Shown one piece after another: positions 3,085-23,396 of a DNA stretch of 36,974 nucleotides; the stretch's first letter is position 1; every line of letters starts with the position of its first letter. This DNA comes from a virus: positions 1 to 36,974 of the IMG/VR virus record IMGVR_UViG_3300045988_122510. One strand, 5' to 3'. The notes under the pieces were generated by a model. The model had not been told where the DNA came from. It saw only the letters and a list, made by a program, of their open reading frames with translations, and did not search any database. Made by a program: the position numbers and the translations under genes.

Positions 3085-4812
3085 ATGATAGATGAAAAAT
3101 TACAAGAAAAGTTGTTAAGTGTATTTGATAAAAGATTTCAAGATTATAATACAAAAGTATTAGAAAAATTAGGAAATGTTATCAAGCAATTTAAAGACTT
3201 AACTCCATCACAGGCTTACGAGTTAGGTCAGCAACTAAAATACAATACAACTGTCAAGGACTTACTAGATGAGTTATCTAAAATAAGTGGCTTGTCTGTT
3301 AAAGACTTGAAAGCAATACTAGAAAAGGTTGCAAAAGAAAACATTGGATTTGCGGATACTTATTATAAATCAAGAGGCTTGGAAACACCTATTTATAGTG
3401 AAAATAAAGCACTACAAAGGCTCGTTAATTCAGTTTATAATATAACTGGCAAAGAATTTAAAAACATTTCCAAAAGCACAGGATTTAGACTTTTGGATAA
3501 GGATAAAAAGCCTTTATTATTAAATATTAACGAAGTTTATAAAGAAGTTATTGATAGAAGTGTAATAGCTGTTAGCGAAGGTAAGGAATCTTACCAACAA
3601 GTTATGAGAAACACACTTCGACAATTGAGTGAAAGTGGAGTTCGTAAAATTGAGTATGAAAGTGGTTACTCTAGAAGAATAGATACAAGTGTTAGGATGA
3701 ATGTTTTAGATGGAATGAGACAAGTGGCAAATGAAAGCCAACAATTATTTGGACAAGAATTTGACAGTGATGGTATAGAAATATCTGTTCATCAAAATCC
3801 AGCTGATGATCATAGCATAGTTCAAGGACGTCAATTTTCAAATAAAGAATATGAAAAATTGCAAGAAACAGGAATTGCTACTGACTATACTGGCAAAGTA
3901 ATTGACATAAATTTAAAAAAGGGATTTAGACCCATATCAACACTCAACTGCTATCATTACATATTTTCAATAGTGTTAGGTGTGAGCAAACCGAGATATA
4001 GTGAAAAAGAATTACAAGATATAAACGAAAAGAATAAAAAAGGGTTTGAATTTGAGGGTAAACATTATACAATGTATGAAGGCACACAATTACAAAGAAA
4101 AATCGAAACTGCTATTCGTGAAGCAAAAGATACACAAATATTGGCTAAATCAAGTGGTGATGATGATTTGGTATTACAAAGCCAAACAAGAATTACACAA
4201 TTAACTACTAAATACAAAAAATTATGTAACGTTAGTGGACTACCTGATAAGTTATCTACTAGAGCAAGTGTAAGTGGCTATAAAAGAACTAAAATTAATA
4301 AAAAACCAAGTATAGTAAAATTTAAAAATGAAGTTGATTTTACTAAAAGCAATCATCCTAAGCCAATTTTGCTTGAAAAAATAGAACGAAAACAAATTGA
4401 TCAAAGAATAACATATTATGAAGATTTAATAAGAAAAAGCGATATAGAAAATGCTATTATTGTAACTAAAAATAATGAAGTTTATCAATGCTTTGGAAAT
4501 AAAGATAACGTATGGCCTGATATTGATTTACCTGATAAATTAGAAAATGCCATTGTGACTCATAATCATTTGAAGGAAAAAACAAGTTTTACATTTAGTA
4601 ATGATGATATTTCATTTTTTGAAAAGAACAAATTAAAAAAATTAAGAGGAACTGATTATAAATACGTTTATGAATTAGATAAAAATGGCAAACCCACATT
4701 AAAAGAACCATTGCTTGACGAAATGGTAGAAGATGGTTCTCTTGAATATATAAAAGCAATAAATTATGCCATTAAAAATGATATTTCTTTTAAAAGATGG
4801 AGACTAAAATGA
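3085..4812 (+). CDS. head morphogenesis / minor capsid protein (MuF, SPP1 gp7-like) with a ~170-aa C-terminal extension
   Basis: Family-typical block YSRRIDTSVRMNVLDGMRQV...GIEISVHQNPADDHSIVQGRQFS, followed by GKHYTMYEGTQLQRKIE. At 575 aa it is longer than the core domain. Confidence 0.8.
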   Translation: MIDEKLQEKLLSVFDKRFQDYNTKVLEKLGNVIKQFKDLTPSQAYELGQQLKYNTTVKDLLDELSKISGLSVKDLKAILEKVAKENIGFADTYYKSRGLETPIYSENKALQRLVNSVYNITGKEFKNISKSTGFRLLDKDKKPLLLNINEVYKEVIDRSVIAVSEGKESYQQVMRNTLRQLSESGVRKIEYESGYSRRIDTSVRMNVLDGMRQVANESQQLFGQEFDSDGIEISVHQNPADDHSIVQGRQFSNKEYEKLQETGIATDYTGKVIDINLKKGFRPISTLNCYHYIFSIVLGVSKPRYSEKELQDINEKNKKGFEFEGKHYTMYEGTQLQRKIETAIREAKDTQILAKSSGDDDLVLQSQTRITQLTTKYKKLCNVSGLPDKLSTRASVSGYKRTKINKKPSIVKFKNEVDFTKSNHPKPILLEKIERKQIDQRITYYEDLIRKSDIENAIIVTKNNEVYQCFGNKDNVWPDIDLPDKLENAIVTHNHLKEKTSFTFSNDDISFFEKNKLKKLRGTDYKYVYELDKNGKPTLKEPLLDEMVEDGSLEYIKAINYAIKNDISFKRWRLK

Positions 4813-4813
4813 A

Positions 4814-4843
4814 TTTACAAAAAATAAATTAATGTGATATAAT
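4814..4843 (+). promoter_or_regulatory. sigma-A type promoter for the non-coding locus
   Basis: TTTACA (4814-4819), 18-nt spacer, TGaTATAAT extended -10 (4835-4843). Confidence 0.6.
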
Positions 4844-4887
4844 TAATGCAGTGGAAAAAGTGTTTTACAATTTCCTTGCGTGTTACC

Positions 4888-5043
4888 TTTATAGGTAGCA
4901 TATTGAGTAAATAAAGAGAGAATGTTAGAGAGGACGTGTCTAACTGGTCGAACCTATTGTTACTATATCTATGGTACCTGATAGTGATAAAGGGCAATAG
5001 GAATGGAATCGAAATTTTATTTACTCAGTATGGTGCTTATAAG
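4888..5043 (+). ncRNA. structured RNA module U1 (about 28 positions of basal helix closing a ~100-nt branched apical domain)
   Basis: 4888-4915 pairs with 5016-5043, with 4 G-U pairs and one G/G mismatch. Internal hairpins are GTTAGA/TCTAAC (4923-4943) and CCTATTG/CAATAGG (4953-5002). Confidence 0.6.
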
Positions 5044-5223
5044 CCTATTTTCCCGTGTGGAGGTAAGATTTAAGCATTATTATTGATATGTAAAGTTAGA
5101 AGTGATAAGACACTTAAAAATCTATCTTGCAAGTACTACATATCAATTCATATACTTCATTGATTAGTTAAAATACGAATGTATGTAGGCTAGTTTGACA
5201 TTATAGTATATGCTTGCTATCTC

Positions 5224-5358
5224 TTGTAGGTAGCATATCGAGTAAATATAAAATAGAGCTCTTGGTAGAGTCTGGGTGCGTACGCCAATCCAAAACTAAG
5301 ACAATGGGGTATAGGTTCGATTCCTATTGATTATATTTACTTGATATGCTGCTTGTAA
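5224..5358 (+). ncRNA. structured RNA module U2 (28-bp basal helix closing a tRNA-like domain)
   Basis: 5224-5251 pairs with 5331-5358 with no mismatch and 5 G-U pairs. The apical 79 nt contain a D-arm-like GCTC-TTGGTA-GAGT (5258-5271) and a canonical T arm ATAGG-TTCGATT-CCTAT (5311-5327). Confidence 0.65.
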
Positions 5359-5499
5359 ATACTAGCAGTCTATAAATGTGTTCCAGAATGGAGTAAATCA
5401 AGAAATTGATGTAGAAATCATCTTTATAGGCAATAAGCACTTATGCAAATAATATATACTTCATTACATTAGCTGCCATTGTTATATATTGACTATCTC

Positions 5500-5592
5500 T
5501 AGTAGGTAGTGTCTAGTGATATAGAAACAACTAGTATCATGTAGCTACTAATCGAGGCTAGGCTCGTATATATCATTAGACAGTATCTATTA
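5500..5592 (+). ncRNA. structured RNA module U3 (24-position basal helix, ~45-nt apical domain)
   Basis: 5500-5523 pairs with 5569-5592, with 3 G-U pairs and a G/G mismatch at the same place as in U1. It has the same TAGGTAG start as U1 and U2 but a different, co-varying helix sequence. Confidence 0.55.
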
Positions 5593-5610
5593 AGATACAT
5601 GAACTGAAAG

Positions 5611-5635
5611 GCAACCTTAATGGTTGTTTTTTTTT
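5611..5635 (+). terminator. intrinsic terminator ending the non-coding locus
   Basis: Hairpin CAACC-ttaat-GGTTG followed by a run of 9 T. Confidence 0.6.
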
Positions 5636-5641
5636 GTGTAT

Positions 5642-5670
5642 TTGATTTTTTTTAGTAAATATGATATAAT
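5642..5670 (+). promoter_or_regulatory. sigma-A type promoter
   Basis: TTGATT, 17-nt spacer, TATAAT, with a TG extension (TGaTATAAT, 5662-5670). Confidence 0.55.
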
Positions 5671-5981: not shown

Positions 5982-5987
5982 ATGAAT

Positions 5988-6545
5988 ATGAAGAGAGAAT
6001 TCTTGAAAGGCTTAGAATTGGAAGATGAAATGATTGATAAGATTATGGCTGAATATGGTAAATCTATATCAAGTGAAAAAGCAAAGATTGATGACTTAAC
6101 ATCTAAATTAGAGGCTAGCAATACTAAGATAGCAGAATACGAAACAAAAGTTACTAATCTTGAAAAAGTTTCAAGTGACAGTGCCAAAGTTCAAGAAGAA
6201 TTAGACAACTTAAAAAAATCAATAGCAGAAAATGAAGCAAAAGCAAAAGCAAAAGCAGAAGATGACGCTTTGACAAAAAATATTACAAGTGCATTTGGAG
6301 ATAAAAAGTTCGTAAATGAATATACAAAAAATGCAATTATAGGCGACATTAAAACTGCTTTAAAGGACAGCAACAATGCTGGAAAATCTGCAAAAGATTT
6401 ATTTGAGGAGTTAACAAAAGACAAGGAAGGAATATTTGACAATCCTAACAAAGGAGTTTCAACTCCGCCAACAGGAGATGTTAATACTGGACTTGCAAAA
6501 GAAAATCACGATAGGGAACTATTGGGATTGGATTTAAAAAAATAA
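5988..6545 (+). CDS. capsid scaffolding protein (GP20-like)
   Basis: N-terminus MKREFLKGLELEDEMIDKIMAEYGKSI, then a charged coiled coil. It lies immediately upstream of the capsid gene. ATG 5988 has better spacing from AAGGAGG than the ATG at 5982. Confidence 0.75.
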   Translation: MKREFLKGLELEDEMIDKIMAEYGKSISSEKAKIDDLTSKLEASNTKIAEYETKVTNLEKVSSDSAKVQEELDNLKKSIAENEAKAKAKAEDDALTKNITSAFGDKKFVNEYTKNAIIGDIKTALKDSNNAGKSAKDLFEELTKDKEGIFDNPNKGVSTPPTGDVNTGLAKENHDRELLGLDLKK

Positions 6546-23319: not shown

Positions 23320-23396
23320 GGGTAGATACTCAAGTGGTCTAAGAGGCAAATCTGCAAAATTTGTATTCATGGGTTCGAATCCCATTCTGCCCTCCA
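23320..23396 (+). tRNA. tRNA-Cys (anticodon GCA) with an encoded CCA
   Basis: Hand-folded cloverleaf. Acceptor GGGTAGA/TCTGCCC. Anticodon stem CAAAT/ATTTG with loop CTGCAAA. T arm ATGGG-TTCGAAT-CCCAT. Discriminator U73, a Cys identity element. A13/A22 mismatch. Confidence 0.8.

Follow-up and report, generated by a model that had tools for sequence, protein, structure and literature searches.

Element U2 of the phage DNA analysed here (the window, a stretch of 36,974 nucleotides) is best explained as a cassette in a three-module non-coding RNA operon, which extends from a promoter at about 4814–4843 to a terminator at about 5606–5640. With confidence only a little above even, we read this cassette as the combination of a constant helical handle and an interchangeable head descended from a tRNA, in which the handle would act as a processing stalk and the head as a decoy. 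What appears to be new is the modular arrangement, in which one handle brackets at least 51 head families and for which no match was found in Rfam, INPHARED or the searched literature. The array that contains U2 lies between the minor head and scaffold genes of the window and has the following outer parts:

4814–4843, plus strand: promoter-like site, composed of TTTACA, an 18-nt spacer and a TG-extended TATAAT (11 of 12 consensus positions; a consensus match only)
4880–5042, plus strand: module U1, with flank X at 4880–4888 and handle arms at 4889–4915 and 5016–5042
5491–5598, plus strand: module U3, with flank X at 5491–5498 and class-C handle arms at 5500–5523 and 5569–5592
5606–5640, plus strand: intrinsic terminator, an 11-bp stem followed by a T run, which closes the three-module unit

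The promoter-like site directly follows the stop codon of the minor-head gene and, as judged from its match to the consensus, is likely to be the start of the U1-U2-U3 transcript. A homologous terminator follows the last module in many other loci. The head of U1, which measures 100 nt between the listed arms and 104 nt between the 22-nt handle cores, belongs to head family F2, present in at least nine other loci; the head of U3 is 45 nt long, and its 3' flank forms a Z:Z' hairpin at 5583–5598. Between these two modules, U2 comprises the following features:

5215–5235, plus strand: 5'-flank hairpin X:Y, 5215–5222 with 5228–5235 (8 bp, 5-nt loop)
5224–5251, plus strand: 5' arm of the handle, with the basal motif TAGGTAG and the class-A upper handle CATATCGAGTAAATA
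5252–5330, plus strand: head, a 79-nt tRNA-derived domain
5258–5271, plus strand: D-arm-like hairpin GCUC-UUGGUA-GAGU (pair probability ~0.73)
5273–5292, plus strand: anticodon-arm relic, which holds the invariant palindrome GCGUACGC (5278–5285)
5311–5327, plus strand: T arm AUAGG-UUCGAUU-CCUAU, a local match to the Rfam tRNA model (model positions 44–63, 14.0 bits)
5331–5358, plus strand: 3' arm of the handle, paired with 5224–5251
5348–5369, plus strand: 3'-flank hairpin Z:Z', 5348–5353 with 5364–5369

The first-pass annotation described the helix formed by 5224–5251 and 5331–5358 as a perfect 28-bp duplex. All 28 positions do pair, but five of them are G-U wobbles (the other 23 are Watson-Crick pairs), hence the helix is perfect only if the wobbles are counted, and it reads as RNA of the plus strand; on the minus strand the wobbles turn into A-C mismatches. 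The minimum free energy is -54.6 kcal/mol for the plus strand versus -37.1 kcal/mol for the minus strand, and the plus-strand z-score relative to shuffled sequences is -5.7. U2 is an RNA-level structure of the plus strand. All 22 positions of its handle core are paired, and the three pairs at the junction are mismatched (A·A, A·G and T·T), as had been noted before. The two flanking hairpins, both read from the sequence, involve the base of the handle: X:Y and the handle base are mutually exclusive, and Z:Z' overlaps the base of the 3' arm.

The same annotation took this helix for a U2-specific replacement of the acceptor stem, an interpretation that fails, as the handle is common to U1, U3 and altogether about 170 modules with unrelated heads in 93 gut-phage loci. 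U2 belongs to this handle family, which we defined by a helix of at least 22 bp that starts from a purine-rich basal motif (TAGGTAG) and has a compensatory 3' arm. The apparent invariance of the basal AGGUAG is partly a matter of ascertainment, since the detector required the motif; basal variants include TAGTTAG, TAAGTAAC and GAGTAGC. The class-A 22-mer of the U2 5' arm has matches in 38 IMG/VR loci, and a 20-mer of this arm occurs in 55 gut-metagenome contigs and five genome contigs, three of which are gut Bacilli MAGs or Clostridium sp. CAG:1000; an archaeal match to the 20-mer has no module. The handle-bearing phages form a clade of uncultivated gut phages with Bacilli-like hosts. We counted handle pairs on an ungapped fixed register, as the MAFFT alignment introduced register-breaking gaps. 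Among 54 distinct 22-bp cores, 93.7% of the cells are paired, double-sided changes occur at 17 of the 22 pairs, and G-U cells outnumber A-C cells by 142 to 10. Pair 7 is a G·G mismatch in 52 of the 54 cores; U2 of the window is the sole core with G:C at this position, while the U2-type copies in loci L020, L061 and L097 retain G·G. Judged by these patterns of substitution, the handle is a real, selected RNA helix.

The heads on this handle fall into at least 51 unrelated families, and small ORFs are bracketed by it as well. Modules range from 80 to 330 nt, and each phage has one to four of them, which differ from each other. A single upstream flank was found before five different heads, and a single head family on up to four handle classes; conservation of the handle could partly stem from recombination among related phages rather than from recognition by a protein. 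Flanking hairpins are a general feature of the family: of 118 distinct modules, 110 have an X:Y-type hairpin with 6 bp or more (24% of shuffles), and 83 have a Z:Z'-type hairpin of the same minimum length, with Watson-Crick covariation (16% of shuffles). Modules are probably co-transcribed with the neighbouring genes: of the 498 ORFs no shorter than 120 aa that were counted up to 4 kb from a module, 467 share its strand. A tRNA gene is found within 500 nt of 45 of the 170 modules, in L044 and L071 the modules are immediately preceded by ROOL RNA, and a PF09414 RNA ligase is encoded nearby in 21 loci. In the window we found no conserved partner protein adjoining the modules: the commonest neighbours elsewhere (a 149-aa regulator-like protein, the RNA ligase and terminase subunits) were considered and rejected for this role, being absent from the window or merely positional. 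Searches of INPHARED phage genomes with the non-coding island (megablast and blastn) returned no match, and Rfam searches of the window and 37 module-bearing related loci, with gathering as well as permissive thresholds, returned only tRNA and ROOL, and no head or handle. The searched literature contains no description of the handle element, though a motif of a catalogue of 10,006 phage RNA motifs could overlap one of the heads. For handle class B, the hammerhead (CUGAUGA) and C/D-box assignments were dismissed on inspection, because the motif is fully Watson-Crick paired inside the handle.

The head of U2 had been annotated as a tRNA mimic with canonical D and T arms, without a 7-nt anticodon loop and without CCA. 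Its length of 79 nt stands, and so do the underlying segments GCTC-TTGGTA-GAGT (5258–5271), GGTG-CGTA-CGCC (5275–5286) and ATAGG-TTCGATT-CCTAT (5311–5327). The T arm is indeed canonical, with a 5-bp stem, the G53:C61 pair and a UUCRANN loop. The D arm, which in a standard tRNA has G18-G19 and a loop of at least 8 nt that includes A14, does not fully conform: its 4-bp stem, which includes one G-U pair, closes a UUGGUA loop that has the GG but only 6 nt, two fewer than in the relatives (AAUUGGUA). The 13-mer of this D arm is identical to the D arm of three real type-II phage tRNAs of 90–91 nt. The anticodon relic has two possible folds, GGUG-CGUA-CGCC and a bulged 6-bp stem with the 7-nt loop CGUACGC; the latter reaches -39.2 kcal/mol versus -41.5 kcal/mol for the fold proposed initially, so the favoured folds lack a 7-nt anticodon loop and the bulged alternative provides one. 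According to ARAGORN, the homologous position in L121 is an anticodon ACG. No CCA is encoded at U2. Thermodynamic folding bears the annotation out in part: ViennaRNA supports the D-arm hairpin, yet gives the T arm a pair probability of only about 4%, as it is outcompeted by a U2-specific helix of 5302–5309 with 5322–5329, and a cloverleaf-like fold is 7.2 kcal/mol worse than the minimum. For 21 of 78 real tRNAs, too, this method fails to find the T arm.

As expected for a non-decoding element, ARAGORN makes no call at U2; its sole call in the window is tRNA-Cys at 23320–23396. Trimmed and CCA-tailed U2 constructs also went uncalled at default settings and were recognized only with lowered thresholds and introns allowed. 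Rfam 15 at gathering thresholds assigns no family to U2 and matches only tRNA-Cys within the window, and a wider Rfam scan at E ≤10 gave nothing at U2; scored directly against RF00005, U2 obtains its 14.0 bits from the T arm alone (gathering threshold 29). By contrast with U2 itself, homologous heads match RF00005 over the full length and above the threshold: 42.7 bits for the L022 type, 43.4 for L112 and 48.2 for L121. A second head type, exemplified by L004, scores 46.8 bits. In the three divergent homologues the top seven handle pairs serve as the acceptor stem, and an insert of 33–34 nt takes the place of the anticodon arm; within this insert the palindrome GCGUACGC is conserved among the relatives. 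L112 is a positional homologue of U2 with the same downstream spacer, and the head of L121 is called tRNA-Arg(acg) by ARAGORN. A covariance model (R1) built without U2 finds U2 as its best match in the window (39.5 bits, E ~4e-7). By these comparisons, U2 is a homologue of tRNA-like heads whose scores exceed the Rfam tRNA threshold, and those closest to it resemble a tRNA-Arg(ACG) that has a long variable region.

All U2-type copies (n=4) are identical, so covariation was measured on the divergent relatives. Compensatory changes occur at two of the five T-stem pairs (four variants), and UUCRA is kept in the T loop of all four variants; the T arm is conserved. From these four variants only, RNAalifold pairs the D region in another way rather than as the D arm. 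Across the family, T-loop hairpins are present in 7 of 105 distinct heads versus 0.72 expected from shuffles. L020, L061 and L097 carry the very same head as U2, over the 85 nt that separate the 22-nt handle cores; with four identical copies, selection on the peculiarities of U2 is inseparable from recent transfer. Wider pattern scans for further relatives of U2 yielded mostly coding false positives. Recent descent from a particular phage tRNA was also considered and rejected, since in local alignments with 92 tRNAs nothing but the D and T arms matched. Overall, the tRNA-mimic reading is largely right, on the support of the relatives and not of U2 itself: the homologues confirm a non-decoding tRNA-like fold with a long helix at the acceptor position, but U2 alone is weak at 14 bits. 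U2 is a degraded member of its head type: its T arm is still there, its D arm is shortened, and its anticodon loop survives as a relic. Compared with tRNA (RF00005), its anticodon arm is replaced or degraded, and its acceptor helix runs for 28 bp without a free end and without CCA. Loss of a usable anticodon arm and of a clean acceptor/T junction makes decoding impossible.

Several alternatives have to be weighed against this interpretation. tRNA genes without CCA are normal in Bacilli, and it could be argued that U2 is a working precursor of tRNA-Arg (ACG), whose handle is a leader-trailer pairing removed by RNase III, RNase P and RNase Z before CCA addition; the ARAGORN call for L121, the RF00005 scores of the relatives, their 7-bp acceptor equivalents and a discriminator position would all fit. 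We consider it very unlikely, because U2 has three non-Watson-Crick pairs beside the T stem, a 3-nt linker and the shortened D loop, its favoured folds lack a 5-bp anticodon stem with a 7-nt loop, and ARAGORN rejects even the trimmed, CCA-tailed constructs unless thresholds are lowered and introns allowed. Even L121 has an anticodon stem with two G-U pairs and a C·A mismatch, C at position 37 and a barely paired long variable arm. The degradation of U2 may instead indicate decaying cargo, a functionless pseudo-tRNA relic on an array of which only the handle or the whole is selected. Two D-loop nucleotides that L022, L112 and L121 possess have been lost from U2, which has also gained the junction mismatches and the helix that competes with the T arm, and the U2 type is rare (4 of about 170 modules). 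However, the 85-nt head is identical in four phages that differ in handles and flanks, its T arm and palindrome are intact, and functionless AT-rich DNA is usually deleted quickly from phages; we regard this explanation as unlikely. Somewhat less probable still is processing punctuation, in which the tRNA-like fold only recruits RNase P and RNase Z and the released head has no function, in analogy to transcript cutting at mascRNA of the MALAT1 3' end and at mitochondrial tRNAs. RNase P and RNase Z measure from the elbow formed by the T and D loops, and the modules lie inside polycistronic units between protein-coding genes, as this explanation would have it. On the other hand, about 44 of the 51 head families share the handle without having a T-loop hairpin, so that the processing feature common to the modules would be the handle rather than the tRNA fold; conservation of the anticodon-replacing insert with GCGUACGC among the relatives argues for a function of the head itself; and a fully paired leader and trailer make a poor RNase P substrate.

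Two further explanations concern the stem rather than the head. The inverted repeats could belong to a DNA-level element (a MITE, an IS200/605-type palindrome, integron attC-like ends or a cruciform), a possibility suggested by the cassette-like behaviour (one flank with several heads, one head with several handles) and by the two similar sub-terminal hairpins X:Y and Z:Z' in direct orientation. It is made highly improbable by the ratio of 142 G-U to 10 A-C cells, as predicted for RNA from one strand, by the co-orientation with genes in 467 of 498 cases, by the RNA-type covariation of the heads, and by the presence of one to four different modules per phage, not many copies of one; moreover, the Pfam scan found no transposase or integrase among the scanned window ORFs. 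The first-pass annotation had likened U2 to YrlA-class Y RNAs, and the corresponding explanation, that U2 is a YrlA/Yrn1-class Y RNA whose stem binds Rsr (Ro60) and whose tRNA-like module tethers another factor, can be given hardly any credence. Y RNAs such as YrlA of Salmonella and Mycobacterium and Yrn1 of Deinococcus do combine a long stem of the 5' and 3' ends with tRNA-like T and D arms, as U2 does, and they are likewise small, non-coding, not chargeable as encoded and in some cases phage-encoded, with likely Y RNAs in 22 phages (PMC4201824). Thus the overall architecture fits, and in having D before T and its stem at the acceptor position U2 resembles D. radiodurans Yrn1 as described (PMC4201824). 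In YrlA, however, the arms follow the order T, closed acceptor-like stem-loop, D, with the long stem at the anticodon position (PMC4201824), whereas U2 has D, relic anticodon arm, T, and its long stem at the acceptor position. Pfam detected no TROVE/Rsr domain in the 35 window ORFs that were scanned, among them every one of the seven with at least 400 aa, and a regular-expression search for GNCGAAN0-1G, the proposed Rsr site on the 5' stem strand (PMC4201824), found no match in 4871–5600, the region of the modules. Apart from the T-arm match, no Rfam family is found even at E=10. In addition, the stem of U2 is a generic handle that also carries at least 51 unrelated, non-tRNA-like cargos, including ORFs, which is not a property of Y RNAs. 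For these reasons the comparison with YrlA fails.

We therefore return to the reading of U2 as a handle-and-head cassette, on whose processing and decoy function we can only speculate. The handle would be a stalk for processing, protein binding or both, on which exchangeable RNA heads are presented. A host double-strand-specific RNase of the RNase III family could cut it, or a dedicated factor could bind it, and either event would free each head from the polycistronic transcript and stabilise it. The X:Y and Z:Z' hairpins might then re-form after processing and cap the neighbouring RNAs. Once freed, the head of U2 would not be chargeable but would expose a tRNA elbow and a U-A-C-G loop that proteins which bind tRNAs could recognise. 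It might serve as a decoy or competitor towards a nuclease that targets tRNAs, or towards an enzyme that modifies or processes them.

Known systems provide partial parallels to such a design. The tRNA-like domain of tmRNA, MALAT1 mascRNA and the synthetic tRNA scaffold, which stabilises inserted RNAs, have no anticodon arm; as here, they keep the body formed by the acceptor, T arm and D loop, and other RNA replaces the anticodon arm. That body gives stability and recognition by tRNA enzymes. In these RNAs the acceptor ends are free and processed, whereas in U2 a long conserved duplex encloses the acceptor. The processing stalks of rRNA, cut by RNase III or Mini-III, are like the handle long helices of flanking sequences around a structured RNA and are polycistronic with tRNAs (PMC4357697). 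BsMini-III prefers the site ACC^U/AGGU and also cuts AUC^U (PMC4357697), and the basal AGGU of most handles equals one strand of this site. The resemblance is a 4-nt match only, always with G-U wobbles and not in every handle variant, and a Mini-III target ACCU/AGGU at the handle base was set aside as a weak lead only, as some basal variants lack AGGU. U2 sits in, or at the equivalent of, a phage tRNA island, and ROOL and GOLLD (RF03087; PMC12286853) are, like the handle modules, phage or prophage non-coding RNAs near tRNA genes. There is no sequence or structure similarity between the modules and ROOL, which is a single fold of about 600 nt that forms nanocages (PMC12286853).

A more far-reaching idea, which we advance tentatively and hold to be rather less probable than not, is that the handle is a universal RNA socket: recognition by one factor would allow a library of at least 51 heads to be expressed, excised, stabilised and exchanged by recombination in the arms, with the heads serving as decoys or inhibitors. 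The socket would then consist of the conserved duplex with its fixed purine·purine mismatch and switchable flanking hairpins, read by a host or phage factor, and the heads (structured RNAs and mini-genes, among them U2 and its tRNA-Arg(ACG)-like relatives) would be aimed at different proteins of host defence or RNA metabolism. If this is true, the handle would be a counterpart of integron cassettes at the level of RNA.

Phage tRNA islands have long been puzzling, as have the RNAs that accompany them (ROOL, GOLLD), and defence systems directed at tRNAs have turned out to be common. U2, a non-chargeable tRNA look-alike with a relic of an Arg(ACG)-type loop in a dedicated operon, is a concrete and directly testable candidate for a decoy. 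As a natural scaffold, the handle might also be of use for stable RNA expression in Gram-positive bacteria. It will be interesting to search for the factor that binds or cuts the handle, as such a search, carried out once, would open a whole library of uncharacterised phage RNAs.

Module U2 (5224-5358), one of three modules (U1, U2 and U3) in the non-coding island of the window, has exactly the architecture described in the first-pass annotation. Its helix (5224-5251 with 5331-5358) is paired at 28 of 28 positions, by 23 Watson-Crick and 5 G-U pairs, and the 79-nt apical domain holds all the hairpins listed there. Between this helix and the T stem, three pairs are non-canonical (A·A, A·G and T·T). 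The G-U wobbles become A-C mismatches on the opposite strand, and the folding energy is -54.6 kcal/mol on the plus strand (z = -5.7 versus shuffles) and -37.1 kcal/mol on the minus strand, which together point to an RNA read from the plus strand. As had been anticipated, the only ARAGORN call in the window is a tRNA-Cys (23320-23396), with none at U2, and the same tRNA-Cys is all that Rfam matched at gathering thresholds. U2 and its surroundings comprise:

3085-4812, minor head gene, upstream border of the island
4814-4843, strong promoter-like site ahead of U1
4889-4915 with 5016-5042, arms of the U1 helix
5215-5222 with 5228-5235, hairpin of the 5' flank of U2 with its basal 5' arm (X:Y)
5258-5271, D-arm-like hairpin of U2, GCTC-TTGGTA-GAGT
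5275-5286, hairpin of U2 at the anticodon position, GGTG-CGTA-CGCC
5311-5327, T arm of U2, ATAGG-TTCGATT-CCTAT
5348-5353 with 5364-5369, hairpin of the basal 3' arm of U2 with its 3' flank (Z:Z')
5500-5523 with 5569-5592, arms of the U3 helix
5606-5640, intrinsic terminator after U3
5642-5670, second promoter, TG-extended, after the terminator, a predicted restart of transcription
5982-6545, scaffold gene, downstream border of the island

Judged from the predicted promoter and terminator, U1-U2-U3 look like a single unit of ~790 nt. A spacer motif after U1, GCCTATTTTCCCGTGTGGAGG (5043-5063), was seen again after modules in three other loci (L029, L066, L097), which suggests conserved elements in the inter-module spacers too. 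The segment 5642-5825 consists of the second promoter and an ORF of 41 aa that has two CxxC pairs (MKEYRCICGKLLFKG...CRHCKK) but no Pfam match and no homologue in the related loci; the ORF product may resemble the zinc-ribbon translational activator Com of phage Mu. An HNH endonuclease ORF (PF01844, 6930-7472) separates the scaffold gene from the head genes further downstream.

The 28-bp helix had been read as U2's own replacement of an acceptor stem. This view is not supported: U1, U3 and other loci carry the same helix, which is a generic "handle" bracketing variable sequences ("heads"). U1 (4880-5042) and U3 (5491-5598) belong to the handle family of U2; the head of U1 (family F2, 104-106 nt) is found in nine or more further loci, the 45-nt head of U3 was found in this window alone, and neither has an Rfam match. 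The 22-mer of the 5' arm matches 38 IMG/VR contigs exactly, and a 20-mer of the handle arm occurs in 55 human-gut metagenome contigs and five genome contigs, including two uncultured Bacilli MAGs and Clostridium sp. CAG:1000; no module was found in the matching archaeal genome contig. Across the matching contigs the arms are nearly constant and the sequence between them is wholly different. A detector biased to one basal motif (AGGTAG-like, with at least 20 of 22 ungapped pairs) identified ~170 modules, mostly one to four in tandem, in 93 metagenomic loci that include near-duplicates.

Among 54 distinct 22-bp cores, 93.7% of cells are standard pairs, double-sided (compensatory) changes occur at 17 of the 22 handle pairs, and G-U cells outnumber A-C cells by 142 to 10. 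At pair 7, 52 of the 54 cores have a G·G mismatch, U2 of the window being the sole G:C exception. The upper handle falls into at least six sequence classes with matching 3' arms. The apparent invariance of TAGGTAG is partly due to the basal motif required by the detector, and modules with other basal motifs (TAGTTAG, TAAGTAAC, GAGTAGC) exist. Pairing of at least 6 bp joins the 5' flank (X, e.g. AUGCUAUCU or ACACUAUCU) to the basal 5' arm (Y) in 110 of the 118 distinct modules versus 24% of shuffles, and the basal 3' arm (Z) to the 3' flank (Z') in 83 of the 118 versus 16% of shuffles, the latter with clear Watson-Crick covariation. Both hairpins compete with the handle base; the three pairings are mutually exclusive, and all are retained.

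The 105 distinct heads group into 51 unrelated families of 32-162 nt. Since the same upstream flank precedes heads from five different families, and a single head family is mounted on as many as four handle classes, flanks, handles and heads shuffle independently. Two of the cargos, 281-293 nt long, each consist of a small ORF (81-84 aa) with its ribosome-binding site (L012 9780-10104 (-), L029, L065, L092 and L079 5075-5411 (-); coordinates on the module strand). Here an ORF with the C-terminus ...LMNNEGKTIEKLI/V and no Pfam match replaces the non-coding head.

U2 on its own provides weak evidence for a tRNA origin: the Rfam tRNA model aligns only to its T arm (model positions 44-63, 14.0 bits), and the four U2-type copies (window, L020, L061, L097) are identical and thus devoid of covariation. 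Pattern scans revealed divergent homologues on other handle classes, namely the L022 type (five loci), L112 (a positional homologue, as its downstream spacer is that of the window) and L121. These align full-length to RF00005 with 42.7, 43.4 and 48.2 bits, respectively (gathering score 29): the top seven handle pairs form the acceptor stem, positions 8-9 are UA, the D arm is ACUC-AAUUGGUA-GAGU, an insert of 33-34 nt takes the place of the anticodon arm, and the T arm, which is canonical, directly adjoins the 3' handle arm. ARAGORN calls L121 natively as tRNA-Arg(acg), 93 nt long, whose anticodon stem is weak and whose variable arm is long. The unrelated L004-type head, with a 67-nt insert, is likewise full-length on RF00005 (46.8 bits). 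RNAalifold predicted the T arm over the four variants, the distinct sequences behind the covariation in this family, with compensatory change in two of five pairs (AU×2/GC×2; UA×2/UG/CG). The T loop, on whose conservation in homologues the mimic had been made to depend, is UUCRA-NN in all four. A covariance model (R1) built from the three relatives without U2 ranks U2 (5249-5336) first among its matches in the window, at 39.5 bits and E about 4e-7 and with the family-specific middle region aligned as well, versus 26.4 bits for the genuine tRNA-Cys; real tRNAs elsewhere score 33-44 bits, so the signal is partly generic tRNA-likeness. T-loop hairpins occur in 7 of the 105 distinct heads versus 0.72 in shuffles, enriched yet a minority. 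Taken together, the sequence comparisons indicate that the U2 head is derived from a tRNA.

R1 also matched tRNA-like segments of 95-97 nt (L026 348-444 (-), L062 2221-2317, L085 9610-9704 (-); 32.6-38.8 bits). ARAGORN calls none of them, and at least the one in L026 has an ordinary GC-rich acceptor stem and no handle. The unusual short D arm GCTCTTGGTAGAGC is common to U2 and type-II tRNAs of 90-91 nt from unrelated phages, called tRNA-Ile(tat) (L039 3872-3961, L040 1098-1188, L041 7840-7930 (-)).

Of the tRNA-mimic reading, then, the tRNA-like part stands, through relatives that pass RF00005 and a covarying T arm; its assignment to YrlA-class Y RNAs does not. U2, too, combines a stem with a tRNA-like module, but every testable feature spoke against that class: no TROVE gene was found among the window ORFs scanned with Pfam, U2 has no GNCGAA motif, and its topology differs. 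As to the fold, a U2-specific helix of CAAUGGGG with UCCUAUUG (5302-5309/5322-5329) beats the T arm in ViennaRNA, where the T arm has a pair probability of ~4% (although it is likewise missed in 21 of 78 real tRNAs) and the cloverleaf-like fold lies 7.2 kcal/mol above the minimum; a bulged stem that closes the 7-nt loop CGUACGC can also form, at -39.2 kcal/mol. U2 departs from its relatives in a D loop 2 nt shorter, AGA instead of UA as linker, the three non-Watson-Crick pairs next to the T stem, and an additional G and C flanking GCGUACGC (5278-5285). This 8-nt palindrome, unchanged in U2 and the three relatives, coincides with the position read by ARAGORN as anticodon ACG in L121, and may be the remnant of a loop, a hairpin paired with itself or a site of kissing-dimer formation. 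Neither Rfam nor ARAGORN classes U2 as a tRNA, although its relatives are borderline tRNAs; we regard it as a degraded member of its tRNA-derived head group. It resembles other tRNA bodies lacking the anticodon arm, such as the tRNA-like domain of tmRNA, mascRNA and the synthetic tRNA scaffold.

In other loci the arrays are found either between the terminase genes and a gene for a 149-aa regulator-like protein or, as in the window, between the minor head gene and the scaffold gene. Modules share the strand of the neighbouring genes (of 498 ORFs with 120 aa or more inside 4 kb, 467 are co-oriented), and 45 of 170 have a tRNA gene at most 500 nt away. ROOL RNA (RF03087) is located directly upstream of modules in L044 (4643-5238, 178 bits) and L071 (7526-8129, minus strand, 153 bits), in the order tRNA, ROOL, modules, tRNA; modules thus share phage tRNA islands with ROOL, which is located near such islands (PMC12286853). 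In 21 loci a PF09414 RNA ligase is encoded 1-3 kb upstream (e.g. L028 459-1082, 207 aa, E = 6e-12, KxDG motif), a possible connection of the modules with RNA repair or ligation; the window has no homologue.

As for function, which we infer for handles and heads alike, the simplest interpretation is of the handle as a processing and/or protein-recognition stalk that would free each head from a polycistronic transcript and stabilise it. It may be likened to the long helices of 5' and 3' sequences around rRNAs, cut by RNase III-family enzymes, and its purine·purine mismatch, which is fixed, and the conservation of its basal sequence speak for a specific reader rather than one of generic double-stranded RNA. 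The preferred site of B. subtilis Mini-III is ACC^U/AGGU, with AUC^U cleaved as well (PMC4357697); this agrees with the basal AGGU of most handles, but is only a lead, as the match is 4 nt long, always includes wobbles and is not universal. Once the head is excised, the flanking RNAs could be capped by X:Y and Z:Z' hairpins that form again. The U2 head, unchargeable, would present the elbow of a tRNA together with a U-A-C-G loop, which is consistent with a role as decoy or competitor for a nuclease or enzyme that binds tRNA. U2 is a variant within a known class, the tRNA-like non-coding RNAs. The handle has no description in Rfam families, INPHARED genomes or the literature searched, and the handle-and-head cassette system, which appears to be undescribed, is a more interesting result than U2 itself.
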